Shown here piece after piece: positions 1,080 through 44,746 of a DNA stretch of 64,000 nucleotides. The notes under the pieces are model-generated. The model was not told where the DNA came from. It searched no databases and saw only the letters and a program-made list of their open reading frames with translations. A program made the position numbers and the translations under genes. The stretch comes from Escherichia coli (GTDB taxonomy: Bacteria; Pseudomonadota; Gammaproteobacteria; Enterobacterales; Enterobacteriaceae), in NCBI RefSeq assembly GCF_048403405.1, contig NZ_CP183135.1. The stretch is one strand, 5' to 3'. Each line of letters starts with the position of its first letter. Within the stretch, counting starts at the first letter, position 1.

Positions 1080-2266
1080 GAGATCCCCTCATAATTTCCC
1101 CAAAGCGTAACCATGTGTGAATAAATTTTGAGCTAGTAGGGTTGCAGCCACGAGTAAGTCTTCCCTTGTTATTGTGTAGCCAGAATGCCGCAAAACTTCC
1201 ATGCCTAAGCGAACTGTTGAGAGTACGTTTCGATTTCTGACTGTGTTAGCCTGGAAGTGCTTGTCCCAACCTTGTTTCTGAGCATGAACGCCCGCAAGCC
1301 AACATGTTAGTTGAAGCATCAGGGCGATTAGCAGCATGATATCAAAACGCTCTGAGCTGCTCGTTCGGCTATGGCGTAGGCCTAGTCCGTAGGCAGGACT
1401 TTTCAAGTCTCGGAAGGTTTCTTCAATCTGCATTCGCTTCGAATAGATATTAACAAGTTGTTTGGGTGTTCGAATTTCAACAGGTAAGTTAGTTGCTAGA
1501 ACCCATGGCTCCTTTGCCGACGCTGAGTAGATTTTAGGTGACGGGTGGTGACAATGAGTCCGTGTCGAGCGCTGATTTTTTCGGCCTTTAGAGCGAGATT
1601 TATACAATAGAATTTGGCATGAGATTGGATTGCTTTTAGTCAGCCTCTTATAGCCTAAAGTCTTTGAGTGACTAGATGACATATCATGTAAGTTGCTGAT
1701 AGGTTTCCAGTTTTCCGCTCCTAGGTCTGCATATTGTACTTTTCCTCTTACTCGACTTAACCAGTACCAACCCAGCTTCTCAACGGATTTATACCATGGC
1801 ACTTTAAAGCCAGCATCACTGACAATGAGCGGTGTGGTGTTACTCGGTAGAATGCTCGCAAGGTCGGCTAGAAATTGGTCATGAGCTTTCTTTGAACATT
1901 GCTCTGAAAGCGGGAACGCTTTCTCATAAAGAGTAACAGAACGACCGTGTAGTGCGACTGAAGCTCGCAATACCATAAGTCGTTTTTGCTCACGAATATC
2001 AGACCAGTCAACAAGTACAATGGGCATCGTATTGCCCGAACAGATAAAGCTAGCATGCCAACGGTATACAGCGAGTCGCTCTTTGTGGAGGTGACGATTA
2101 CCTAACAATCGGTCGATTCGTTTGATGTTATGTTTTGTTCTCGCTTTGGTTGGCAGGTTACGGCCAAGTTCGGTAAGAGTGAGAGTTTTACAGTCAAGTA
2201 ATGCGTGGCAAGCCAACGTTAAGCTGTTGAGTCGTTTTAAGTGTAATTCGGGGTAATGACTCCAAC

Positions 2267-2770
2267 TTACTGATAGTGTTTTATGTTCAGATAATGCCCG
2301 ATGACCTTGTCATGCAGCTCCACCGATTTTGAGAACGACAGTGACTTCCGTCCCAGCCTTGCCAGATGTTGTCTCAGATTCAGGTTATGCCGCTCAATTC
2401 GCTGAGTGTAACGCTTGCTGATTACGTGCAGCTTTCCCTTCAGGCGGGATTCATACAGCGGCCAGCCATCCGTCATCCATACCACGACCTCAAAGGCCGA
2501 CAGCAGGCTTAGAAGACGCTCCAGTGTGGCCAGAGTGCGTTCACCGAATACGTGCGCAACAACCGTCTTCCGGAGCCTGTCATACGCGTAAAACAGCCAG
2601 CGCTGGCGCGATTTAGCCCCGACGTATCCCCACTGTTCGTCCATTTCCGCGCAGACGATGACGTCACTGCCCGGCTGTATGCGCGAGGTTACCGACTGCG
2701 GCCTGAGTTTTTTAAATGGCGGAAAATCGTGTTGAGGCCAACGCCCATAATGCGGGCGGTTGCCCGGCAT
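2267..2770 (-). CDS. insB: IS1 InsB
   Basis: ORF-track protein [16 protein letters not shown]...[13 protein letters not shown] (167 aa). Confidence 0.8.
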
Positions 2771-2964
2771 CCAACGCCATTCATGGCCATATCAATGATT
2801 TTCTGGTGCGTACCGGGTTGAGAAGCGGTGTAAGTGAACTGCAGTTGCCATGTTTTACGGCAGTGAGAGCAGAGATAGCGCTGATGTCCGGCGGTGCTTT
2901 TGCCGTTACGCACCACCCCGTCAGTAGCTGAACAGGAGGGACAGCTGATAGAAACAGAAGCCAC
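2689..2964 (-). CDS. insA: IS1 InsA
   Basis: ORF-track protein [43 protein letters not shown]... Confidence 0.85.
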
Positions 2965-3180
2965 TGGAGCACCTCAAAAACACCATCATACACTAAATCA
3001 GTAAGTTGGCAGCATCACCTAATTCGGGGCAGAATTGGTAAAGAGAGTCGTGTAAAATATCGAGTTCGCACATCTTGTTGTCTGATTATTGATTTTTCGC
3101 GAAACCATTTGATCATATGACAAGATGTGTATCCACCTTAACTTAATGATTTTTACCAAAATCATTAGGGGATTCATCAG

Positions 3181-3329
3181 GGTGATGCGTGCACTACGCA
3201 AAGGCCAGGCCTCAGCATTTTATTATGGTGATCCCCTGGGCGAAATGCGCCTGGTAAGCAGAGTTTTTGAAATGTAAGGCCTTTGAATAAGACAAAAGGC
3301 TGCCTCATCGCTAACTTTGCAACAGTGCC
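3181..3329 (+). mobile_element. IS26 right-end remnant (149 bp) abutting the IS10 outside end
   Basis: Sequence GGTGATGCGTGCACTACGCAAAGGCCAGG...CGCTAACTTTGCAACAGTGCC is identical to the 3' end of the two complete IS26 copies in this window. Confidence 0.85.
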
Positions 3330-3348
3330 GTGCAGACAGAAACCGTAA

Positions 3349-3585
3349 ACACCGGCATTGACATGCCGGGGAAGCCCTTATAGTACAATAATTCTCTATA
3401 TCCAAACTGACCCCGATGAGAAAAGCATGGAGACGTTGAGCACCAATCTGCAACTCGCCCGGCTGGTTGGCGTTCAGGGGACGCCGGCAACCATCATTGG
3501 CGACGAGATGATCCCCGGCGCGGTATCGTGGGAGACCCTTGAGGCGGTGGTGAAAGAAAAACTGGCGGTGGCCCATGCTCAGTAA
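3349..3585 (+). pseudogene. DsbA-family thiol:disulfide oxidoreductase, 3' fragment (ScsC-like), cut by the IS26 remnant
   Basis: C-terminal DsbA-like motif ...LQLARLVGVQGTPATIIGDEMIPGAVSWETLEAVVKEKL; in-frame stop directly after the IS26 boundary, no N-terminal half. Confidence 0.5.
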
Positions 3586-4081
3586 ACTGCGCCGCTGGCT
3601 GCGTGAAGGCGCGATCTTACTGGTTGTGCTGGCTGGCGTGATAATCCTGCTGGATGTCTGGCGTTCTCCGCAGATGCCGGCCATGTTTGACAGCACGCCG
3701 CTGCATACGCTGGACGGGGAAACCGTAACGCTGGCGTCGATCAGTGAAGAACGCCCGGTGCTGCTCTACTTCTGGGCGAGCTGGTGCGGTATCTGCCGTT
3801 TCACCACGCCGGATGTCGCCCGTTTGCAGTCGGAAGGGGAGAGCGTCATGACCATCGCGCTGCGTTCCGGTAATGACGGGGAGGTTTCCCGCTGGTTATC
3901 GCGTAAAAGGGTGACGTTCCCCGTCGTGAATGATAGCGGCGGTGAGATATCACGAAACTGGGAAATCAGCGTCACGCCAACGCTGGTGGTGGTGTCGAAG
4001 GGGCAGGTGGTAACTACGACCAGCGGCTGGACCAGCTACTGGGGCATGAAGTTACGTCTGTGGCGGGCAGCCATGTTTTGA
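3575..4081 (+). CDS. membrane-anchored thioredoxin-like protein (ScsD-like)
   Basis: N-terminal hydrophobic anchor followed by WCGIC (CxxC) thioredoxin motif; 168 aa. Confidence 0.6.
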   Translation: MLSKLRRWLREGAILLVVLAGVIILLDVWRSPQMPAMFDSTPLHTLDGETVTLASISEERPVLLYFWASWCGICRFTTPDVARLQSEGESVMTIALRSGNDGEVSRWLSRKRVTFPVVNDSGGEISRNWEISVTPTLVVVSKGQVVTTTSGWTSYWGMKLRLWRAAMF

Positions 4082-4317
4082 TAGCGTGCCGGGGAAACCC
4101 GGCATTTTTTAACCCATTGTAAGGATGTGTAAAACGAGCGGAGAGCGTGTTTTCTGTTATTTTTGCTGCTTTTTTACCGACGCCAGTTATTATTTTTTAC
4201 CGCTGCCTGATGTTGCAAACCTGAATTGATAATGGCATATCTGTTTTAATTGAATGAAAGTCTGTGATACGTTCAGGCGATTTTTTCGATTTCCATTTTG
4301 ACAGGGATAACAATTCA

Positions 4318-5079
4318 ATGCGCAAGGGTAAAATTATTGTTGCATCAATGATGGTGCTTTGTGTCCTTATTTTTGTTGCGGCGGCGGCATGGTTTATGCT
4401 GTTCCAGGGAGAAATGACGGAGCCGACAGAGGAGGAAAAACAGGCGGCAATTTTACACGCTGCGGGCCTGATGAAATCAGAGACCCAGGATAAAAAATCA
4501 GTCGAAACGCTCTATCATCGTTATATTATTCAACGCCATGTTAATTTAGATTCCGGCGAACTGGTGGCTGGCAGCAGCGCGGACACCGCGCGGCAGAAGT
4601 GTGAAAAACTTGCCCCTGAACGCGACCCAGCGCAGGTTCGTCAGCGCTGTACGGTGGCGGATGTGTTCTTTGTGAAAGATAAAAATAATGAAATTCAGCA
4701 GGTTATCATTCCAGTTACCGGTAAGGGTGCGAAATCCATGATGCATGCGTTTCTTGCTCTGGGGCTGGACGGTCGTACGGTGAGAAATCTGTATTATTAT
4801 CAGCAACGGGAAACGCCGTTTCTGGGGGCTAGGGTGGAAGACGCCAACTGGCGCAAACAGTGGCCAGGGAAACGATTATTAGATAACAGCGGACATCCTG
4901 CATTGAAAATAGTACAGGATAAACCTGAACATGCCGATGAATATACCGTTGACGGTATTTCCGGTGCGACGTTGACATCAACCGGCGTTGAGAAAAGTAT
5001 TAACTACTGGATGGGGCCGCAGGGATATGGTCAATTCTTACAGCGTCTTGCCAGCGATCGAAATAACCTTAATCTTTGA
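4318..5079 (+). CDS. FMN-binding-domain protein (NqrC/RnfG-like), membrane-anchored
   Basis: DGISGATLTS motif typical of covalent-FMN domains; N-terminal TM segment; start placed at in-frame ATG 4318 (MRKGKIIV...). Confidence 0.5.
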   Translation: MRKGKIIVASMMVLCVLIFVAAAAWFMLFQGEMTEPTEEEKQAAILHAAGLMKSETQDKKSVETLYHRYIIQRHVNLDSGELVAGSSADTARQKCEKLAPERDPAQVRQRCTVADVFFVKDKNNEIQQVIIPVTGKGAKSMMHAFLALGLDGRTVRNLYYYQQRETPFLGARVEDANWRKQWPGKRLLDNSGHPALKIVQDKPEHADEYTVDGISGATLTSTGVEKSINYWMGPQGYGQFLQRLASDRNNLNL

Positions 5080-5365
5080 ATATTGCTGTACGCAATAACG
5101 CGTTTTATTTCTGCCTGCCGATAATGAATAATATCACTGTCGGCAGGGGGATTTATTCCTCTGTTACCGCGCCTGCCTTGCCGTTAATTCCATGAGAAAA
5201 ACAGGGAGATAACGTCCCTTTTATCAACGCATAATGTGTGTGTTCATCACGATTTGATGAAATAAGTTTACATAACTTGTCGTCTGCTGACATTTTTATG
5301 ATCCAGGTCATGTATAACGCGACAAAAAGATATGATAATAATTATCATTTGTATTCTTTGGCGGT

Positions 5366-7312
5366 GTGCACGTGCGTAACTTCCGTAACTCTTTGTTGGT
5401 TACTCTCTTTGGCTTGTTTATAAGCATGAGTGTCTGGGCGTCGACGAATTATGCGCCTTTGATTGAAGATATCGAGCAACGTCTTGATAAAACAGCGGAA
5501 CTTTATCAGCAACAGCATGCCGACGAGGCGCGCCGCACGGTACAAATGGCCTATTTTGAGGTGTTCGAGAACCTGGAAGGGCCGATCCGCATCAACATTT
5601 CCGCGCGCAAAAGTTACGAGATGGAGAGCGCATTCGGCGAGATCCGTCGAATGATTGGCGAGAAAAAACCGCTCGCTGACGTCCAGGCGCGCATTGACTG
5701 GCTGAAAGCCGCACTGCGCGAAGTGGAACCGGTGCTGGATGGCGGACATCGTCTGGTGGCCGAAGAGCAGCACAACGCGCTGTCCAGGGACGACATTGCC
5801 GTTCACTGGCAGGAGAGTTTCAGGACGATCGACGATCTGCTGGCGCAGGCGGTCACTGAATATCAGGCCGGGAATTACAGCGTTGCCAGTCAGCACGTTC
5901 AACAGGCGCACTATCAGGGCTTTAAAAACTCTGAGATGGAGATGTCCCTCAGACAAAACCGTTCTGCAAAAGATGCCGCCTCCATTAACCAACAATTCTC
6001 ATCCCTGATTGCGCTGACCGCGCAACCTGACCATCTCAACGATGTCTCCTATCAGGTCACTACGCTGCTACAGGATATCGAGGATATCTTACCCGGCTTG
6101 CCAACCACCCGTGACGATCAGCAGGTTGCCGCAGCGCAAAGCGCAGACAACATTCCGGCGGCGGACGAGGGAAATAACCGCACCGACTGGGCTGAGGTGA
6201 CGACGGGAATTAACCAGAGCATTCAGGACGCGATAGCGCGCTATCAGGGCGGCGATGCGAAGAATGCGATTCTGGATATCCAGGATACCTACTTCGACCG
6301 CTTCGAAGCCAGCGGCATGGAAAACAAAATCGGCTCTCGCGATTCGGCATTTAAAACCACGCTGGAGGCGTATTTTACCCGCCTGGTCAGTCTGATGAAG
6401 GCCGGTCAGCCGGTTGAGCGCCTGAATGCAGAGGCCAGCGCGCTGACGCAGGATCTGCAAAAAGCCGTGACGATGCTGGGCGAAGGCGAAGAAACCCAGT
6501 GGAGTCTGCTGCTCTATAGTCTGATGATCATCGTGCGCGAGGGGCTGGAAGCGCTGCTGATTGTTGCGGCAATCGTGGCCTACATGGTGAAAAACAACCA
6601 TCAGGATAAGCTGCCGCTTATTCGTCAGTCGGTAATTGTGGCGCTGATCGCCAGCGTCATCACCGCCGCTATCTTCCAGATGCTGTTTACTAACTCCGGC
6701 GCCAGCCGTGAACTGCTGGAAGGCATAACGATGCTGATTGCCGTCGTGATGCTGTTCTTTATGAGTTACTGGCTGCTGTCCAAAGTGGAAGCGCGCCACT
6801 GGAAAGCCTGGCTGGAAGGCAAACTGTCTCATTCCCTGTCGCGAGGCTCCCTGGTCGGACTATGGCTGACCAGCTTCCTGGCGGTGTACCGCGAAGGGGC
6901 GGAAACGGTGCTGTTCTATTACGCTCTGATTGGCGATGCAAACACGGTATCCGGCCATATGGCGATTGGCGCCGGTTTTGTGATTGGCTGCGTGGTGCTG
7001 CTGCTCGCCTGGCTGGTGATGCGTTACTCAGTGGTGCGCCTGCCGCTGAAACCCTTCTTTATGTTTACCGGCAGTTTCATGTATCTGATGGCCTTCGTCT
7101 TTGCGGGCAAAGGCGTTCTGGAACTGGTGGAAGGCAAACTGTTCCAGCCTACGTTGATTAACGGCTTCCCTGAAATCAGCTGGCTGGGGATTTATCCCTA
7201 CGTGGAAACGTTGTTACCGCAGGTCGTATTGCTGCTCGCGGCGCTGGTGGCGCTGTGGGTGATGCGGCGCAAAAGCGCGGTTCCCGGGGAGACGATAAAA
7301 AATAACCCATAA
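5366..7312 (+). CDS. FTR1-family iron permease with large N-terminal periplasmic domain (FetM-like)
   Basis: 648 aa; signal peptide, ~370-aa soluble domain, then multi-TM FTR1-type region (...REGLEALLIVAAIVAYM...). Confidence 0.7.
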   Translation: MHVRNFRNSLLVTLFGLFISMSVWASTNYAPLIEDIEQRLDKTAELYQQQHADEARRTVQMAYFEVFENLEGPIRINISARKSYEMESAFGEIRRMIGEKKPLADVQARIDWLKAALREVEPVLDGGHRLVAEEQHNALSRDDIAVHWQESFRTIDDLLAQAVTEYQAGNYSVASQHVQQAHYQGFKNSEMEMSLRQNRSAKDAASINQQFSSLIALTAQPDHLNDVSYQVTTLLQDIEDILPGLPTTRDDQQVAAAQSADNIPAADEGNNRTDWAEVTTGINQSIQDAIARYQGGDAKNAILDIQDTYFDRFEASGMENKIGSRDSAFKTTLEAYFTRLVSLMKAGQPVERLNAEASALTQDLQKAVTMLGEGEETQWSLLLYSLMIIVREGLEALLIVAAIVAYMVKNNHQDKLPLIRQSVIVALIASVITAAIFQMLFTNSGASRELLEGITMLIAVVMLFFMSYWLLSKVEARHWKAWLEGKLSHSLSRGSLVGLWLTSFLAVYREGAETVLFYYALIGDANTVSGHMAIGAGFVIGCVVLLLAWLVMRYSVVRLPLKPFFMFTGSFMYLMAFVFAGKGVLELVEGKLFQPTLINGFPEISWLGIYPYVETLLPQVVLLLAALVALWVMRRKSAVPGETIKNNP

Positions 7313-7349
7313 TCGTTGTATAGCCGTTGTTTTAGACGAGAGGATACGT

Positions 7350-7880
7350 TTGATGACCATGAAGAAAACCCTGATTGCCAGCGCAGTGATGGCCAGCATT
7401 TTCATTGCGCCAGCCGCGTTTGCTTTTAAAGAGTACCCGGCAGGCGAGCCTGTCACCATGAATGAAATGGAGCTGGCGGCCGTTTACCTGCAACCGATTG
7501 ATATGGAACCGCGCGGCATGGGCTTACCGGCAGCAAAAGCCGATGTTCACCTTGAAGCGGATATCCACGCTGTAGAAGGCAATAAAAACGGCTTTGGCGC
7601 AGGGGAATGGATCCCGTACCTGACCATCAGCTACACCCTGGTCAACAACGACACGGGCGAAAAACAGGAAGGCACCTTCATGCCGATGGTTGCCAGCGAT
7701 GGCCCGCACTATGGCGCGAACATCAAAATGATGGGCGTGGGCAACTATAAAGTGACCTACCACATTGAACCGCCGTCAAAAGCCGGGATGCATCGCCATA
7801 CTGACAGCGAAACAGGCGTAGGCCGCTGGTGGAAACCGTTTGATGTGAGCTACGAGTTTAAATATGTCGGTCTGAACTAA
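7350..7880 (+). CDS. periplasmic P19-type iron-binding protein (FetP-like)
   Basis: 176 aa with signal peptide, immediately downstream of the FTR1 permease as in FetMP/P19 systems. Confidence 0.7.
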   Translation: MMTMKKTLIASAVMASIFIAPAAFAFKEYPAGEPVTMNEMELAAVYLQPIDMEPRGMGLPAAKADVHLEADIHAVEGNKNGFGAGEWIPYLTISYTLVNNDTGEKQEGTFMPMVASDGPHYGANIKMMGVGNYKVTYHIEPPSKAGMHRHTDSETGVGRWWKPFDVSYEFKYVGLN

Positions 7881-7983
7881 AACCGACTAACCAACGCGCC
7901 AGGAGGATTCCCCCTTCTGGCGCGTTGGTCAGACCGATCATATGCCCGTCGCTTAATTCAACCCGCCGTACAGAGTCGAAGTT

Positions 7984-9363
7984 ATGAGTTACTTTTTCGT
8001 CACGACGCTACAGGTCTTTTTCTGCATTGCGCTTCTTTCCGGTGTTCTCTGGAGTCGAAACGATCCTCCCTCTTTACGTCCGCTGACCTGGACGCTGCTG
8101 ACCGGGCTGATTGCCGGCGTGCTGGCGGGACTGTTTATTCACGGCAGCCAACCGGTACAACTGCTGCTGGTTGGGGCGGAGGTCATGGTATCGCTGCTGT
8201 TTGTCCTCAGTTTCTGGTGGGCTTCAACGCGTATCCGCTATCTGTGGCAGGGGATTCTGATTTTCGGCGCTGCCCGCCATTGGGCGCTGGACCCTAATCT
8301 GGGCGGGCTGACCAGTACGCATGTGCTGAATACTGACCTGCTGTTAAACCTGACGGCCGTCGTTCTCGCTTTTGCGATCCTCTGTCTGGCGGGCGTACTC
8401 TGCGCGATGCTGCTGCGGCGTATTCGCGGCCTGTACTGGCCGTTAACGCTGATTCTGCTGGTGATGATCTGGCTGCCGCTGAGCGGCAACCTGCTGTTGT
8501 TGCTGATGAAATTACAGGTTGTTCCGCTGGGAAAATCACTGCTGAGCTTCGTGGCGAAAGTCACAAATAACACGGCGCTGTATAACTGGGCGGGAGCCGC
8601 GCTGCTGCTGGCCCTGGCGCTGTGCTGGCTTCCGGCGCTGTTGCGGGCTTTTCGACAGACGCGGGAAACCGAAGAACCGATTGCTCACCGTCTGGCGCTG
8701 GCGCAGCGTCGCAACGCTTTGCGGCTGTGGTTGGTCACAATCGGCTGCGCGGTGGTCGTTATCGCAGGCCAACTGTGGTGGGATAAAGTGGCCTCGCAGC
8801 CGCCGCAACTCTCTGAAGCCGTGCCCGTAACGCTGGGGAGCGATGGCATGGTGCGCCTGCCGGTTGAACAGCTTCGTGACGGTAAACTGCATCGTTTCGT
8901 CTGGGTGGCGGACGATGGCAAAGCGGTGCGCTTCTTCGTGATTAACCGCTATCCCGACAAGCTGCGTTTTGGCGTGGTGTTCGACGCCTGCCTGCTGTGC
9001 GGCGATCAGGGTTATGTCATGGAGGGCAATCAGGTTATCTGCGTCGCCTGCGGAGTGCATATTTTTATTCCGTCTATCGGCAAGGCCGGTGGCTGTAACC
9101 CGGTGCCGATTGAAAACTGGCACAATGATGAAAAAGAGCTGGTGATCCCCGGTAAAGAACTGGCGACAGGGGTGAACTACTTCTCGACGGTCATGACTAT
9201 TAAAGTGACCGATCCGGTCGATGGTTCAACGTTGACCAATACCTCAGCCGATTACAAATACAGCTATGGCGGCAAGACCTGGTTCTTCTCGTCAGAGGCT
9301 AACTATGAACGCTTCCGTGAAACGCCGGAGCAGTTTGTTCCTGCCGACATGAGGGAGGAATAA
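7984..9363 (+). CDS. polytopic membrane protein with C-terminal Cys-rich metal-binding domain (FetA/Cj1660-like)
   Basis: 459 aa; N-terminal multi-TM half; C-terminal CLLCGDQGY...CVACGVHIF...GGCNPVP and GGKTWFFSSEANYERF. Confidence 0.55.
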   Translation: MSYFFVTTLQVFFCIALLSGVLWSRNDPPSLRPLTWTLLTGLIAGVLAGLFIHGSQPVQLLLVGAEVMVSLLFVLSFWWASTRIRYLWQGILIFGAARHWALDPNLGGLTSTHVLNTDLLLNLTAVVLAFAILCLAGVLCAMLLRRIRGLYWPLTLILLVMIWLPLSGNLLLLLMKLQVVPLGKSLLSFVAKVTNNTALYNWAGAALLLALALCWLPALLRAFRQTRETEEPIAHRLALAQRRNALRLWLVTIGCAVVVIAGQLWWDKVASQPPQLSEAVPVTLGSDGMVRLPVEQLRDGKLHRFVWVADDGKAVRFFVINRYPDKLRFGVVFDACLLCGDQGYVMEGNQVICVACGVHIFIPSIGKAGGCNPVPIENWHNDEKELVIPGKELATGVNYFSTVMTIKVTDPVDGSTLTNTSADYKYSYGGKTWFFSSEANYERFRETPEQFVPADMREE

Positions 9364-9365
9364 TC

Positions 9366-10649
9366 ATGCTGTGGCGGATGTTACGACAATCCTGGGGGCG
9401 CAATTTACGCCGCAAAGTGCTGGCGATAATCACCGTTTTTCTGGCCTCCAGCCTGATCTCGGCGCTGCTGGCGGTGTCCATTGATATCGGCGACAAAATG
9501 TCCAGAGAGCTGAAGTCTTATGGTGCGAACATTTTGATTGAACCCGCCGGACAGGCTGCGCTGCCCGCGCTGTTTAGTGAGAGCAGTAATCCGCTTTCCG
9601 GTCAGGATTTTCTTGATGAAGCCGAGCTGCCGAACATCAAAGATATCTTCTGGCGAAACAACATTGTCGGGTTTGCGCCGATGCTCGGCGGCGAAGCCAG
9701 CGTGGAGGGAGAACCAGTGCGGATTCTGGGCACTTTCTTCAGTCAGCCAGTGGATATTCCTGATGAAGAGGGATATGAGACGGGGCAGAAAACGGTCAGC
9801 CCATACTGGCAGGTGACCGGCGACTGGCCGCAGGAACCCGCAGGCGCAGAGCCGCAGACCTTAGTCGGGCACGCGCTGGCGCGGCAAATGGGCTGGAAAC
9901 CCGGTGATAAGCTGACATTACGTACCGAAGGCGAAGCAGTGCAGGTCACCGTCAGCGGTATCCTCTCCAGCGGCGGCGATGAAGATAACCAACTGGTGAT
10001 GCCGCTAAGCACGGTACAGCACCTGCTGGGGCTCCCCGGAAAAGTGCAGGCGATTCGCGTCTCGGCGCTGACGGTGCCGGAAAACGAACTGTCCCGCCGC
10101 GCGCGGGAAAACCTGGACGCGCTCAATGCCGAAGAGTACGACCTCTGGTATTGCACGGCCTATGTGTCGTCGATCGCGCATCAGCTGGAAGAGGCGATTT
10201 CCGGTGCGGAAGTGCGCCCGGTATGGCAGGTCGCGGCGTCCGAAGGGGTGGTGATCGATAAAATTCAGTTGCTGATGGCGGTCGTTACCGTCGCGGCGCT
10301 GGTGGCTTCCGCAATGGGGATCGCCTCGCTGATGACCAGCACCATTATGGAACGCGCCAAAGAGATCGGTTTGATGAAAGCGCTGGGTGCGCGACAGTGG
10401 CAAATTATGCTGCTGTTCTACCTGGAAGCGGCGTCCAGCGGGCTGGCTGGCGGTGCGCTGGGATGTATTGCCGGGTGGGGGCTGGCGAAAGCGATTGGCG
10501 TCATGCTCTTCGACGCGCCGCTTAATTTTGCCTGGATTGTGGTGCCGTGCGTACTGGTGATTGCGGTACTGATTGCGTTGATCGGCACCTGGTTCCCGGC
10601 CCGGCGGATTGCCCGGCTGTATCCTGTGGAGGTGCTGTATGGCCGCTAA
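9366..10649 (+). CDS. ABC transporter permease, FtsX-like
   Basis: 427 aa; N-terminal TM, large periplasmic domain, C-terminal TM bundle. Confidence 0.7.
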   Translation: MLWRMLRQSWGRNLRRKVLAIITVFLASSLISALLAVSIDIGDKMSRELKSYGANILIEPAGQAALPALFSESSNPLSGQDFLDEAELPNIKDIFWRNNIVGFAPMLGGEASVEGEPVRILGTFFSQPVDIPDEEGYETGQKTVSPYWQVTGDWPQEPAGAEPQTLVGHALARQMGWKPGDKLTLRTEGEAVQVTVSGILSSGGDEDNQLVMPLSTVQHLLGLPGKVQAIRVSALTVPENELSRRARENLDALNAEEYDLWYCTAYVSSIAHQLEEAISGAEVRPVWQVAASEGVVIDKIQLLMAVVTVAALVASAMGIASLMTSTIMERAKEIGLMKALGARQWQIMLLFYLEAASSGLAGGALGCIAGWGLAKAIGVMLFDAPLNFAWIVVPCVLVIAVLIALIGTWFPARRIARLYPVEVLYGR

Positions 10650-11769
10650 ACGTACCATGCTCTGGCTGCTGGTGTGGCGGGCGCTGCGTCTGCGTTTTCA
10701 GCGGGTCAGCGTGGTGTTTGCCGCGCTGATGGTGGGGGCGACCATCGTGACGGCGCTTTCTGCCGTCTGGTTCGACATTAACACCAAAATGAGCGAAGAA
10801 CTGCGCACCTTCGGCGCGAATTTTTACATCGGGCCGGGGCACGGTTCCAGTATGCCGCAGCAGGAGTTGCAGAGCATTCTCGATCAGGCGCCGCAGGGGC
10901 TGGTGCATGGCGCCAGTCCGTGGTTGTACGGCATGGCGCGTACCGAGCTGGAAAAAGTGGTGATGGTTGGCGTGTGGTTCGAGTCGCTGCAAAAACTGGT
11001 GCCGTACTGGCAGGTCACCGGTAGCTGGATTGGCGTTAGTTTTGACGACCGTAATGCGATGATCGGCGTCAAACTGGCGGAACGCCTCAACGTGCAGCCG
11101 GGCGACAGCATCACGCTGGTGGATCACAATCAGCGTAAGAATTTGCAGATTAAAGGCATTGTGGAGTCTGGCGATGCGACGGACAACATGCTGATCGTCA
11201 GCCTCGACGTGGCGCAGGCCTGGCTGCATCAGCCGGGCAAAATCAGCCACGGCTTGCTGAGCGTCAGTAACGATGTCGGCCAGGTGGAGAACTATGCCAG
11301 CCGGTTGCAGGCGCAGTATCCTGACCTGGAGATTCGTCCGGTGCGTAAGGTCTCTGCTTCCGAAGGGCAGGTGCTGGATAAAATTAAAGGTCTGATGGGA
11401 CTGGTCTCGATCGTGATTCTGGCGCTCTCTTCGCTGTGCGTGAATACCACGCTGATGGCGATTGTCGGCGAGCGGGCGCGCGAGTTTGCGCTGCAAAAAG
11501 CGCTTGGTTCCAGCAACGGCGATATCGTGCGGCAAATTCTGCTGGAAACCAGCATCATCGCGCTGGCGGCGGTGGCGTGCGGCTGGGTGCTGGGATATTT
11601 GCTGGCGCAACTGTTGGGATTAACGGTGTTTAATGCCGCCATTTCACTGCGTCTGCCGGTGTTGCCCATTACTCTGGTGTTGTCTTTACTGGTCGCCATT
11701 CTGGCGGCGATTGTTCCGGTGCGACGCGCGGTAAGCGTCGAGCCTGCTAAAGTGCTGAAAGGAGAGTAG
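10639..11769 (+). CDS. ABC transporter permease, FtsX-like (second copy)
   Basis: Paralogous architecture to the preceding gene; start placed at ATG 10639 (MAAKRTML...) overlapping the upstream stop. Confidence 0.7.
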   Translation: MAAKRTMLWLLVWRALRLRFQRVSVVFAALMVGATIVTALSAVWFDINTKMSEELRTFGANFYIGPGHGSSMPQQELQSILDQAPQGLVHGASPWLYGMARTELEKVVMVGVWFESLQKLVPYWQVTGSWIGVSFDDRNAMIGVKLAERLNVQPGDSITLVDHNQRKNLQIKGIVESGDATDNMLIVSLDVAQAWLHQPGKISHGLLSVSNDVGQVENYASRLQAQYPDLEIRPVRKVSASEGQVLDKIKGLMGLVSIVILALSSLCVNTTLMAIVGERAREFALQKALGSSNGDIVRQILLETSIIALAAVACGWVLGYLLAQLLGLTVFNAAISLRLPVLPITLVLSLLVAILAAIVPVRRAVSVEPAKVLKGE

Positions 11770-11773
11770 CGCC

Positions 11774-12469
11774 ATGTCCGTTACGCATATCCCTCAGGTG
11801 GCGATCGAAACCCGCCACTTATACAAACGGTTCGGTGACGTTACCGCCCTGGATGACATTAATCTGCGCATTGCGCAGGGTGAATTTGTCGCCATTATGG
11901 GCGCTTCTGGTTCTGGTAAAACCACGCTGATGAATATTCTGACGTGCCTTGATACGGCGACGGAAGGGCAGGTGTTTCTTGATGGCACCGATGCCGCCGC
12001 GCTGGATGAAGAGGGGCGCCGTCGCTTTCGCGCCGAGAAAATCGGCCTGGTATTTCAGCAGTTCCATTTGATCCCGTTCTTAACTGCGCTGGAAAACATC
12101 ATGCTCGCCCAGCATTACCACAGCGTGGTGGATGAAGCGGCGGCGAGGAAGGTGCTGGAACAGGTAGGGCTTGGGCATCGTGTGACGCACCTGCCGAGCC
12201 AGCTTTCCGGTGGTGAGCAGCAGCGTGTGTGTATCGCCCGGGCGCTGGTCAACGAACCGCCGGTTATTTTCGCGGATGAACCGACGGGCAACCTGGATGA
12301 AGAGAATGAGCAGCGGGTGCTGGATCTGCTCACCGATCTGCATCGTCAGGGGCGCACGATTGTGATGGTGACGCACAACCCTGCGCTTGGGCAGTTTGCC
12401 GACCGTATTCTGCGGCTGCAACACGGTAAATATCTGGGTGAGGAGGCCAATCAACATGCGCTGGCATAA
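11774..12469 (+). CDS. ABC transporter ATP-binding protein
   Basis: Walker [10 protein letters not shown], signature LSGGEQQR, Walker [12 protein letters not shown]. Confidence 0.85.
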
Positions 12470-12941
12470 TGTGCTGTTACTCGCGGCGGCGATCCTGATA
12501 AGCGGGTGTAAAGAAGAAAAGCTGGCGGTCGGGGCACCGGCCCCGGCGCTGGCGGCGTTTGATCTGCAAGGCCAGGAGTCAGGCCTTGAACGCTGGCAAG
12601 GAAAGGCGGTGTACCTGAATTTTTGGTCTGCGGGATGCGGGGGGTGCCTAGCGGAAATGGACACGCTGGAAGCGCTGAGCAAAAAATGGGGCGATAAAGT
12701 GGTGGTTGTGGCGGTCAATACCGACCCTGAAACGGTCAGGATCAACGATCTGCTGGCAAAACATCAGATAACCTATCCGGTGGTGCGCGATCAGCTCAAC
12801 ATTACCCAGGAACGTTATCAGGTGATCGGCACGCCGACCTCCGTACTGATTGACTCCGAAGGACGCGTTCTGGAGCTACACCAGGGTATGCGTAAGCCGT
12901 CTGAGTTAGAGGCCACGTTTGCGCGCCTGGCGGCGCGATGA
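12456..12941 (+). CDS. TlpA-like thioredoxin-fold lipoprotein
   Basis: Lipobox LISGC after start [22 protein letters not shown] motif. Confidence 0.65.
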   Translation: MRWHNVLLLAAAILISGCKEEKLAVGAPAPALAAFDLQGQESGLERWQGKAVYLNFWSAGCGGCLAEMDTLEALSKKWGDKVVVVAVNTDPETVRINDLLAKHQITYPVVRDQLNITQERYQVIGTPTSVLIDSEGRVLELHQGMRKPSELEATFARLAAR

Positions 12942-12965: not shown

Positions 12966-13451
12966 ATGGCATTTATCTGGAACGACGAAAGCCTTGCGAT
13001 TCTGCGGGAAAACGCGGGCATCCTCACGACAGAGCAGATAGCGCAACTGCTTCACACTAATATTACCGCCGTGCGGAATATGGCCTATCGGCTGAAACTG
13101 AGCCTTCGGGTGACGGCGTATAATCACCGACGCATAGCGCAGGTTCAGGCGCTTTATGCCTCTGAGACGTTGAGTCTCAAAGAGATCGCGGCGAAAACGG
13201 GGCTGACGGCCAGTACCGTGCAATATATCGTGTACGTGAAATCAAAAAATAAGCCCTACGCCACCACGGAATATGTCTCTTTTGAAACGGAGAACGCCGT
13301 TCATTACCGCGTGCAAAAAGAATTTGTCGATACGGAACGTTCCCTGCTGGACAACATCTCTGATAACACGCGATTTCGTGAACTGTATCTGACGGACGGC
13401 ACTTTTTATTGCGCCCGCAATATTAAGTATGAGGTTTTTATCTCGGAGTAA
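12966..13451 (+). CDS. hypothetical protein with possible helix-turn-helix segments
   Basis: 161-aa ORF, no family recognised; coding-like composition. Confidence 0.4.
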   Translation: MAFIWNDESLAILRENAGILTTEQIAQLLHTNITAVRNMAYRLKLSLRVTAYNHRRIAQVQALYASETLSLKEIAAKTGLTASTVQYIVYVKSKNKPYATTEYVSFETENAVHYRVQKEFVDTERSLLDNISDNTRFRELYLTDGTFYCARNIKYEVFISE

Positions 13452-13572: not shown

Positions 13573-14316
13573 ATGAAAAAATTGATACTCGCCGCCGCTG
13601 TGGCAGGGGCTGTTTTATTGTCGTCCGCCGCGCAAGCGCAGACAACGCCGGAAGGTTATCAACTGCAACAAGTGTTGATGATGAGCCGACACAACTTGCG
13701 CGCGCCGTTGGCCAATAATGGCAGCGTGCTGGAGCAGTCCACGCCGAATCAGTGGCCGGAGTGGGATGTGCCCGGCGGGCAGCTCACCACGAAAGGCGGT
13801 GTGCTGGAAATTTATATGGGCCACTACATGCGAGAATGGCTGGCGGAGCTGGGGATGGTCACGTCAGGCGAATGCCCGACGCCGGACACGGTATATACCT
13901 ATGCCAACAGTCTGCAACGCACCGTTGCGACGGCACAATTCTTTATCACCGGCGCTTTCCCTGGGTGCGACATTCCGGTACATCATCAGGAAAAAATGGG
14001 CACGATGGACCCAACGTTTAATCCGGTGATCACCGATGACTCTGCGGCGTTTAGCCAGAAAGCGGTGCAGGCGATGGAAAAAGAGCGCAGCCAGATGCAG
14101 CTTGACGACAGCTATCAGCTGCTGGCGCAGATGACGGACTACAAAGATTCACCGTCCTGCAAAGAAAAACAGCAGTGTTCGCTGACCGAAGCCAAAGACG
14201 CCTTTAGGGAAGGTGCGAATAAGCAGGTCATGTCTTCCCAAGCTGACTCGTTGATTAAAATTTCGCGGATCTGGGCCGATTTTTGTCCCGCAAACACATC
14301 GAATCAGCCTATTTAG
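13573..14316 (+). pseudogene. agp: glucose-1-phosphatase (histidine acid phosphatase), 5' portion only
   Basis: Signal peptide plus RHNLRAP active-site motif and close resemblance to E. coli Agp through ...[13 protein letters not shown]; 247 aa instead of ~413. Confidence 0.7.
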
Positions 14317-44611: not shown

Positions 44612-44746
44612 TGTAATGTTTCAACACCATGTATTAATTGTGTTTATTTGTAAAATTAATTTTTCTGACAATAACATTTCTCGTTGATAATGAGAATCAT
44701 TATTGACATAATTGTTATTATTTTACTGTGTAGGAGCTGTTTGATT

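Follow-up and report, generated by a model that had tools for sequence, protein, structure and literature searches.

A plasmid-borne iron-uptake cluster and the flavoprotein gene directly upstream of it were analysed in a stretch of 64,000 nucleotides from Escherichia coli (contig NZ_CP183135.1; hereafter the window). The cluster, at positions 5366-12941, is the published FetMP-Fls (FetMP-FetABCDEF) iron-uptake system of the P19/FTR1 type, and it lies on an IncF plasmid. The flavoprotein gene, here called nqrC-like, encodes what profile and structure comparisons identify as a full-length paralog of NqrC, a subunit of the Na+-translocating NADH-quinone reductase (Na+-NQR), outside any nqr operon. 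The balance tips slightly towards one reading of the whole region. In this reading, a captured block of Citrobacter koseri-like DNA holds a known iron system and an inert or independent remnant of an scs operon, and NqrC-like would be an optional periplasmic flavin electron carrier for FetMP-Fls.

For the redox step of P19/FTR1 systems, published models call on thioredoxins, an ATP-binding cassette (ABC) transporter and a membrane protein rich in Cys, but they define no path for the electrons. A flavoprotein derived from NqrC and strictly linked to fetM, in a host amenable to genetics, offers a direct handle on this step. If the proposed role is true, it would mean flavin-based periplasmic ferric reduction in Enterobacteriaceae. 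Through IncF plasmids, nqrC-like is present in about 15% of the E. coli strains with complete genome sequences. If the protein has no role with iron, the finding reduces to the correction of an annotation and the history of a segment, namely a Citrobacter block beside IS26.

Gene identities were obtained from the list of open reading frames (ORFs) and from Pfam and NCBIfam profile searches of the window. All genes named in the initial annotation were recovered in place. Its placement of the cluster among FetMP/P19 systems with a downstream ABC transporter and thioredoxin set holds for gene content as well as gene order. The Pfam E-values (Table 1) exclude chance. The same seven genes in the same order, with a Fur box before fetM, make up FetMP-Fls in E. 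coli F11, on the Salmonella plasmid pUO-StVR2, in C. jejuni (cj1658-1665) and in Y. pestis (FetMP-Flp). The order flsD-flsA-flsB-flsC-flsT after fetM-fetP is the same in 20 comparison loci, and the order in the window matches that reported for 33 species (PMC6083913). The name FetM is taken from the work on pUO-StVR2, where the plasmid cluster and that of E. coli F11 were reported as identical or very similar. In Salmonella, loss of fetMP-flsDA reduced the iron content of the cells about five-fold, and the deletion strain grew poorly when iron was restricted (PMC7285068). In C. jejuni, where the cluster is fetMP-fetABCDEF, fetA-D and the thioredoxin pair are required under iron limitation, and the redox step is undefined; FetA, the equivalent of FlsD, is described in the same study (PMC10783030).

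Among the cluster proteins, FetP gave 4602 homologs in a homologue search. FlsD is a polytopic membrane protein whose periplasmic FtrD-like/DUF2318 domain carries CLLC, CVAC and one further Cys. FlsA and FlsB are paralogous, with about 29% mutual identity. FlsT (Redoxin, E=3e-18; ResA-like, 95 bits) is the seventh gene in all loci and is the genuine thioredoxin of the iron cluster.

NqrC profiles cover the full length of NqrC-like (TIGR01938, 182 bits against a cut-off of 144; NF003747, 388 bits). The known protein to compare it with is NqrC of the Na+-NQR of V. cholerae and V. harveyi. NqrC-like is 38-41% identical to V. cholerae NqrC, and a search against this protein (7xk3_C, E=6e-49) aligned residues 3-245 with residues 10-252. 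The fold is the same: an AlphaFold model (AF2) with a predicted local distance difference test score (pLDDT) of 84.7 matched the crystal structure of V. cholerae NqrC (4u9s) in Foldseek with a TM score of 0.86 and a root-mean-square deviation of 2.6 Å. The ORF opens at 4264, and the conserved start is the ATG at 4318. The N-terminus consists of MRKGK and a hydrophobic segment, which the model shows as a helix at residues 2-32, in agreement with the topology of NqrC in solved complexes. The initial annotation had pointed to an attachment site for flavin mononucleotide (FMN) in the motif DGISGATLTS. This motif aligns with DGLSGATLTS of V. cholerae NqrC, and Thr218 thus corresponds to the flavinylated Thr225. 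Residues G216, A217 and T218 are invariant in an 18-sequence alignment, and [S/T]GAT is retained across about 65 cluster representatives except in two apparently frameshifted or chimeric entries. In contrast to NqrC, none of nqrA, B, D, E and F was found beside nqrC-like, either in the window itself or at any of 15 related loci.

In a family alignment of about 100 relatives, sequences of at least 47% identity form a distinct orphan family. The next most similar protein, at 43%, is the NqrC of Yokenella, located inside nqrABCDEF-nqrM. More distant relatives are genuine NqrC, such as one on a Tritonibacter plasmid (29%) within nqrABCDEF; a 36% relative in Proteus sits in an unannotated stretch. 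The orphan family shares with NqrC the N-terminal anchor helix, the threonine for covalent FMN, the ETPxLG motif and the pocket lysine, but the flavin pocket differs. The pocket of V. harveyi NqrC is lined by Leu149 and Trp150, the former of which clamps the pyrimidine ring (PMC4348036). These residues are replaced by Ala138-Lys139 in every representative of the orphan family bar one chimeric entry, whereas canonical NqrC has Leu-Trp with one exception. The flavin environment is therefore remodelled. One or two apparently frameshifted or chimeric entries aside, the orphan family further has a deletion of about eight residues relative to canonical NqrC, as well as Cys95 and Cys111, which are absent from canonical NqrC and lie on short predicted strands of the model (95-97 and 109-111).

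RefSeq calls the product 'Na(+)-translocating NADH-quinone reductase subunit C', which is a homology name and not a functional assignment. E. coli is not known to possess a Na+-NQR sodium pump, and the annotation misleads since it names NqrC-like as a subunit of that pump. The name can be traced to NF003747, an 'equivalog' profile with a cut-off of 336. Other members of the orphan family score 221-300 and canonical NqrC 186-260. As only the plasmid allele passes, the name of an NQR subunit is put on a protein outside an NQR operon.

The link with the iron system is provided by synteny. A scan of one genome per species gave 11 loci (Citrobacter spp., Phytobacter, two Enterobacter spp. and Superficieibacter), and nqrC-like lies directly upstream of fetM-fetP-flsDABCT in 11 of 11. 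Four further members from the protein search (Raoultella, a record labelled E. coli, a genome at 46% identity, and Sodalis) show the same arrangement, which brings the total to 15 of the 15 loci examined (46-100% identity, at least six named genera). The left-hand neighbours of nqrC-like vary by genus and include scsD, a ROK regulator, an AraC-type regulator and an IS605 OrfB gene. Hence, the conserved unit is nqrC-like plus fetMP-fls. Pairwise ratios of nonsynonymous to synonymous substitution rates (dN/dS) of 0.08-0.24, rough values as dS is near saturation, indicate purifying selection and thus a functional coding gene. Strict and exclusive linkage in the same orientation across genera, together with purifying selection, speaks for a protein that functions alongside FetMP-Fls. 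As a separate observation, nqrC-like is intact in Sodalis (L017, 5043-9940), with about 2.2 kb of tiny ORFs only before fetM. The spacer is degraded there, and a stop codon interrupts the fetM match when it is extended; this suggests that the surroundings are decaying while the flavoprotein gene has been kept.

Flavoproteins in clusters of this type are not without precedent. P19 clusters have a variable accessory position, which holds a thioredoxin in Proteobacteria and an FMN-binding protein in several other phyla; sometimes a cytochrome is found there. These accessory proteins were proposed to provide extracytoplasmic reducing power for iron (PMC6083913; PMC8238504). The suggestion in the initial annotation of such reducing power for ferric iron had therefore already been published. 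Its view that the FMN protein is not a standard component is correct for the published descriptions of the plasmid cluster, which begin at fetM and mention neither NqrC nor FMN (PMC7285068), but not for P19 clusters in general, where FMN proteins were published (PMC6083913; PMC8238504). Neither FetMP-Fls itself nor the idea that a P19 cluster may include an FMN protein is therefore new.

The clusters of Liu 2018 (PMC6083913) and Méheust 2021 (PMC8238504, 260 clusters) encode an extracytosolic FMN_bind protein with the motif [S/T]GA[S/T] together with P19 and FTR1. They occur in Actinobacteria, Firmicutes, Spirochaetes and Synergistetes, mostly Gram-positive, and the FMN protein replaces the thioredoxin as seventh gene. 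FMN_bind (PF04205), the [S/T]GA[S/T] motif and adjacency to fetM/fetP are all present in the window. In contrast to those clusters, the FMN protein is here added to the thioredoxin, in Enterobacterales, upstream of fetM and apparently in its own transcription unit, and it is a full-length NqrC paralog, more than an FMN_bind domain. The C. jejuni cluster has two thioredoxins and no flavoprotein (PMC10783030). A literature search for NqrC with ST131, plasmid or iron, or with FTR1 or P19, returned nothing beyond Méheust 2021. Within the literature searched, an enterobacterial NqrC-derived paralog with a remodelled pocket, encoded upstream beside a thioredoxin and widespread on E. coli IncF plasmids, appears to be undescribed. 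A likeness also exists to PplA and other ApbE-flavinylated proteins of extracellular electron transfer, which are membrane- or lipid-anchored extracytosolic FMN_bind proteins. PplA of Listeria (Light et al. 2018) can reportedly pass electrons to ferric iron; it has two FMN_bind domains, and its gene is accompanied by genes for a dedicated NADH dehydrogenase, for EetA/B and for the flavin transferase FmnB. Unlike PplA, nqrC-like is not accompanied by donor genes.

A role of NqrC-like as ferric reductase or electron donor can reasonably be inferred. The current FetMP model requires a source of redox power (PMC10783030). In the known system, FetP binds periplasmic iron and FetM carries it across the inner membrane, while FlsD, the FlsABC transporter and the thioredoxin FlsT support a redox step; with the Fur box before fetM, fetMP-flsDABCT would be under the control of Fur. 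In the proposed mechanism, a duplicated NqrC would have left the Na+-NQR complex, keeping one N-terminal helix as anchor and the flavin domain in the periplasm. A chromosomal apbE gene is present in E. coli, and the host ApbE would attach FMN covalently to Thr218. NqrC-like would then relay single electrons to ferric iron or to FlsD/FlsT, converting Fe3+ to transportable Fe2+, which is the most likely direction. A more specific proposal is put forward tentatively. Duplication and exaptation may have turned the Na+-NQR subunit into a free-standing flavin carrier of the periplasm, with a remodelled Ala-Lys pocket and a new disulfide-capable Cys pair, that passes electrons to FetMP-Fls from a host membrane complex outside the cluster, e.g., Rsx/Rnf, NQR, or the quinol pool via FlsD.

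Several points weigh against this role. The gene appears to form its own transcription unit, with its own promoter-like motif and a hairpin or terminator. The motif TTGCAA-N15-GGCATA is found exactly, and with identical spacing, in the Citrobacter, Phytobacter and Enterobacter sp. EA-1 loci and would function as a promoter. A hairpin follows nqrC-like in every locus; its U tract is weak in the plasmid allele, and U tracts are present in Phytobacter, Superficieibacter and Enterobacter EA-1. The Fur scan of 14 loci, with the 7-1-7 consensus at no more than three mismatches and the 19-mer consensus, gave only background matches (10-13 of 19) upstream of nqrC-like. Before fetM, the Fur box has no mismatch here and in 9 of 10 orthologous loci, while the tenth has one mismatch. 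No other site in the window fits the 7-1-7 consensus perfectly, and the box agrees with the classical 19-mer at 15 of 19 positions. Given its own promoter-like motif, the hairpin and the lack of a Fur box, nqrC-like may not be iron-regulated. The initial annotation had named absence from all related loci and iron-independent transcription as signs against a role with iron. The gene is present in related loci, but it appears to be transcribed on its own and, unlike fetM, has no Fur box.

The plasmid copies add nothing to the linkage. Among plasmids, fetMP is found in 834 records and nqrC-like in 835, with the same host distribution; identity among the copies is 95% or more throughout, and 99% or more with a single exception. 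Such near-identical records stem from a single capture event and give no independent support. Co-occurrence on plasmids was therefore dropped as an argument. The dN of nqrC-like is also about 3 times that of fetM and about 10 times that of fetP, rough values as dS is near saturation. The cluster lacks a gene for an electron donor to the flavin, and the flanks of the loci examined showed no ApbE gene. In the nearest FetMP-Fls clusters outside the family (FetP 75-93%), from Atlantibacter, Pectobacterium, Avibacterium, Acerihabitans and Pseudaeromonas, an FMN_bind gene is present in none of five. Synteny therefore has two sides: the gene is directly upstream of fetM in every locus of the family and missing from the most similar clusters outside it. 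Finally, a cloned fetMP-flsDA fragment of 5,566 bp gave complementation and gained phenotypes (PMC7285068); judged by its size alone, this clone probably excludes nqrC-like. The separate transcription signals, the fast evolution and the absence from sister clusters argue that nqrC-like is an optional component. A gene for a c-type cytochrome of about 100 aa lies directly after or overlaps flsT in Atlantibacter (L015, 15585-15881) and Acerihabitans (L023, 14703-15029). A cytochrome in this place where NqrC-like is absent suggests that accessory electron carriers are interchangeable.

The separate promoter-like motif and terminator without a Fur box, the absence from sister clusters and the FetMP function of the clone would also fit a protein unrelated to iron. 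NqrC-like would then be a linked neighbour with another periplasmic redox task, e.g., tapping the host Rsx/Rnf or NQR, and a passenger on the mobilised segment. The co-capture of the unrelated scsC', scsD and agp' indicates that hitch-hiking occurred. However, all members of the family that were located sit immediately before fetM, in one orientation, in at least six named genera with otherwise differing neighbours, and such strict, exclusive linkage combined with purifying selection is unusual for unrelated genes. We consider a passenger role improbable, though its probability is not negligible.

A role for NqrC-like as electron acceptor is more doubtful still. Fe2+ held by FetP would be oxidised during transport, and the electrons would flow via the periplasmic flavin to the quinone pool. 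FTR1-type permeases are classically coupled to ferroxidation, as in yeast Fet3-Ftr1 and FtrABCD. Fet3/Ftr1, EfeUOB and FtrABCD would be the models for such a role, and FlsD bears an 'FtrD-like' domain. In C. jejuni, FetE/FetF are oxidase-like in vivo, and the authors left the redox direction open (PMC10783030). The direction is not fixed by the sequence. However, the cluster contains no cupredoxin or peroxidase, and where a role has been proposed in print for the FMN proteins of P19 clusters, it is a reductive one (PMC8238504; PMC6083913). The Ala-Lys change, moreover, puts a positive charge near the flavin, which on general flavin chemistry would favour reduced anionic forms.

The two genes to the left of nqrC-like had been taken as thioredoxin-like partners of the iron system, a view that had to be abandoned. 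The DsbA-like fragment shares 84-89% identity with the C-terminal end of a Citrobacter protein of 207 aa, which in turn matches Salmonella ScsC (PDB 4GXZ) over its full length (E=5e-104); scsC' is, on this alignment, a truncated and non-functional remnant. The CxxC protein is identified by position and size as ScsD, the product of the last gene of scsABCD, outside the iron cluster. In one Citrobacter locus (L004), the FMN gene is preceded by genes for a 120-aa protein, a 626-aa DsbD-like protein, the 207-aa DsbA-like protein and a 168-aa CxxC protein. The complete scsABCD operon is found there and in a second Citrobacter locus (L010), the 626-aa protein being ScsB. The DsbA-like fragment and the CxxC protein of the window are orthologous to ScsC and ScsD of Salmonella and Citrobacter, but only scsC' and an intact scsD are kept; scsA and scsB, which codes for the DsbD-like reductant, disappeared at the IS26 junction. 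What the window contains is thus a remnant of scsABCD and not a member of that system. The hairpin CCGGGGAAACCCGG and its T-run, a strong terminator after scsD, are kept in all Citrobacter-type loci. No scs genes adjoin the FMN gene and the iron cluster in Phytobacter, two Enterobacter spp. and Superficieibacter (L008, L011, L012, L014). The scs identity, the conserved terminator and the four loci without scs argue that scsC' and scsD are not partners of the iron system; for scsD, synteny and the terminator rule it out. Both are best seen as an inert or independent remnant of a neighbouring copper-tolerance operon. It is accordingly very improbable that these two proteins and the FMN protein form a joint upstream redox module of the iron system, as three adjacent same-strand genes for extracytoplasmic redox proteins might suggest, given that the DsbA-like ORF is the end of scsC, the pair is genes 3 and 4 of scsABCD, a conserved terminator separates scsD from nqrC-like, and the four non-Citrobacter loci hold nqrC-fetMP-fls with no scs nearby.

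Table 1. Features of the captured segment and its borders (positions in the window)
Feature	Position	Strand	Description
IS26 remnant	3181-3329		terminal inverted repeat TTTGCAACAGTGCC at 3316-3329; left boundary of captured segment
DsbA-like ORF	3358-3585	+	PF01323, C-terminal part only
scsC'	3415-3585	+	last ~56 codons of DsbA-like copper-tolerance protein ScsC
scsD-like	3575-4081	+	168 aa, membrane-anchored, CxxC (WCGIC); Redoxin/AhpC-TSA/Thioredoxin matches
intrinsic terminator	4086-4105	+	8-bp G+C-rich stem, then TTTTTT; after scsD
promoter-like element	4213-4239	+	TTGCAA-N15-GGCATA; proposed -35 and extended -10
nqrC-like	4318-5079	+	253 aa; predicted N-terminal membrane anchor and periplasmic FMN_bind domain; PF04205 E=6e-11
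hairpin	5113-5148	+	~35 nt past nqrC-like stop; minimum free energy -32.1 kcal/mol, z=-4.4; terminator-like
Fur box	5333-5347		TGATAATAATTATCA; perfect 7-1-7 consensus; 19 nt before fetM GTG
fetM	5366-7312	+	FTR1-family permease, signal peptide, large N-terminal periplasmic domain; PF03239 E=8e-50
fetP	7353-7880	+	periplasmic P19-family iron-binding protein; PF10634 E=6e-70
flsD (C. jejuni fetA equivalent)	7984-9363	+	PF10080 FtrD-like/DUF2318 E=3e-28; YHS PF04945 E=6e-17
flsA	9366-10649	+	FtsX/MacB_PCD permease; PF02687 and PF12704
flsB	10639-11769	+	FtsX/MacB_PCD permease; PF02687 and PF12704
flsC	11774-12469	+	ABC ATPase, LolD/MacB/FtsE type; PF00005 E=3e-36; NCBIfam matches
flsT	12456-12941 (annotated start)	+	TlpA/ResA-like lipoprotein; lipobox LISGC; CGGC active site
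flsE	12966-13451	+	161 aa, helix-turn-helix motifs (Sigma70_r4_2, HTH_24, HTH_IclR); co-captured
truncated histidine acid phosphatase	13573-14316		His_Phos_2, N-terminal 160/354 profile positions

The origin of the segment was traced by comparison with Citrobacter chromosomes. The C. koseri contig (L010) has the order cbpA-scsA-scsB-scsC-scsD-nqrC-like-fetM and 98.6% DNA identity over window positions 3415-4400; homology to the donor chromosome begins at 3415. On the basis of this homology and the mobile-element flanks, the region is one block of C. koseri-like chromosome (scsC'-scsD-nqrC-like-fetM-fetP-flsD-flsA-flsB-flsC-flsT-flsE-agp') captured beside IS26. A stretch of 10.5 kb recurs at 100% identity, and with the same annotation, in many IncF plasmids of E. 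coli; coverage of this stretch reaches at least 80% in 813 plasmid records. The nqrC-like region is present in 827 of 5,426 RefSeq complete E. coli genomes, and 850 of its 859 places are on plasmids.

At the right end of the block, flsE follows flsT in Citrobacter, Enterobacter EA-1 and probably one further locus (L020), and tblastn did not find it throughout the loci of the nqrC-like family. FlsE was termed 'not conserved' in the Salmonella plasmid study, and the truncated phosphatase is 'flsF' of the same paper (PMC7285068). From its helix-turn-helix motifs, FlsE could be a local regulator, e.g., of the putative Fur-independent nqrC-like promoter. We read the phosphatase as agp-like, which would fit the cbpA-scs neighbourhood. 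The right flank thus runs from flsE and the truncated phosphatase to IS110-family and Tn3-family transposases.

Minor points concern the annotation of fetM and the transcription signals. RefSeq starts fetM at the ATG 5426. At the upstream GTG (5366), a start codon, GTG or ATG, is conserved in 8 loci; translation from there would include a typical signal peptide (MHVRNFRNSLLVTLFGLFISMSVWA/STNY), which the RefSeq start probably cuts off. A sigma-54 reading of TTGCAA...GGCATA was rejected, its order and spacing being a misfit to TGGCAC-N5-TTGCA. Likewise, a Fur half-site overlapping the putative -10 of nqrC-like in the plasmid allele was dropped, as it is not conserved. An Rfam search (E<=1) gave no riboswitch or small RNA in the 346-nt spacer between nqrC-like and fetM; its only hit was the IS10 RNA-OUT at 3066-3135. 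Elsewhere in the window, a second Fur-box-like site (GATAATGAGAATCATTATT, 44685-44704) has two mismatches to the 19-mer, where none would be expected by chance. It presumably serves another iron-regulated gene.

The left edge of the captured segment consists of nested insertions. The inverted repeat listed in Table 1 is that of IS26. The remnant is itself truncated by an IS10-like element, whose end is at 3180. This element (1089-3180) has an ORF for an IS4-family transposase (1089-2216) and the RNA-OUT (98.8 bits), and it appears to be split by an IS1 copy (InsA/InsB ORFs, 2267-2964); the order is therefore IS1 in IS10, then the IS26 remnant. Position 3349, the listed start of the segment, falls just inside the end of the IS26 inverted repeat (3329). 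The 85 bp at 3330-3414, between this repeat and the scsC homology, match neither the Citrobacter loci nor a recognised element. To the left of the IS10 element, a 138-aa ORF (663-1079) looks AraC/MarA-like by eye, and bases 1-1000 have a G+C content of 34%.

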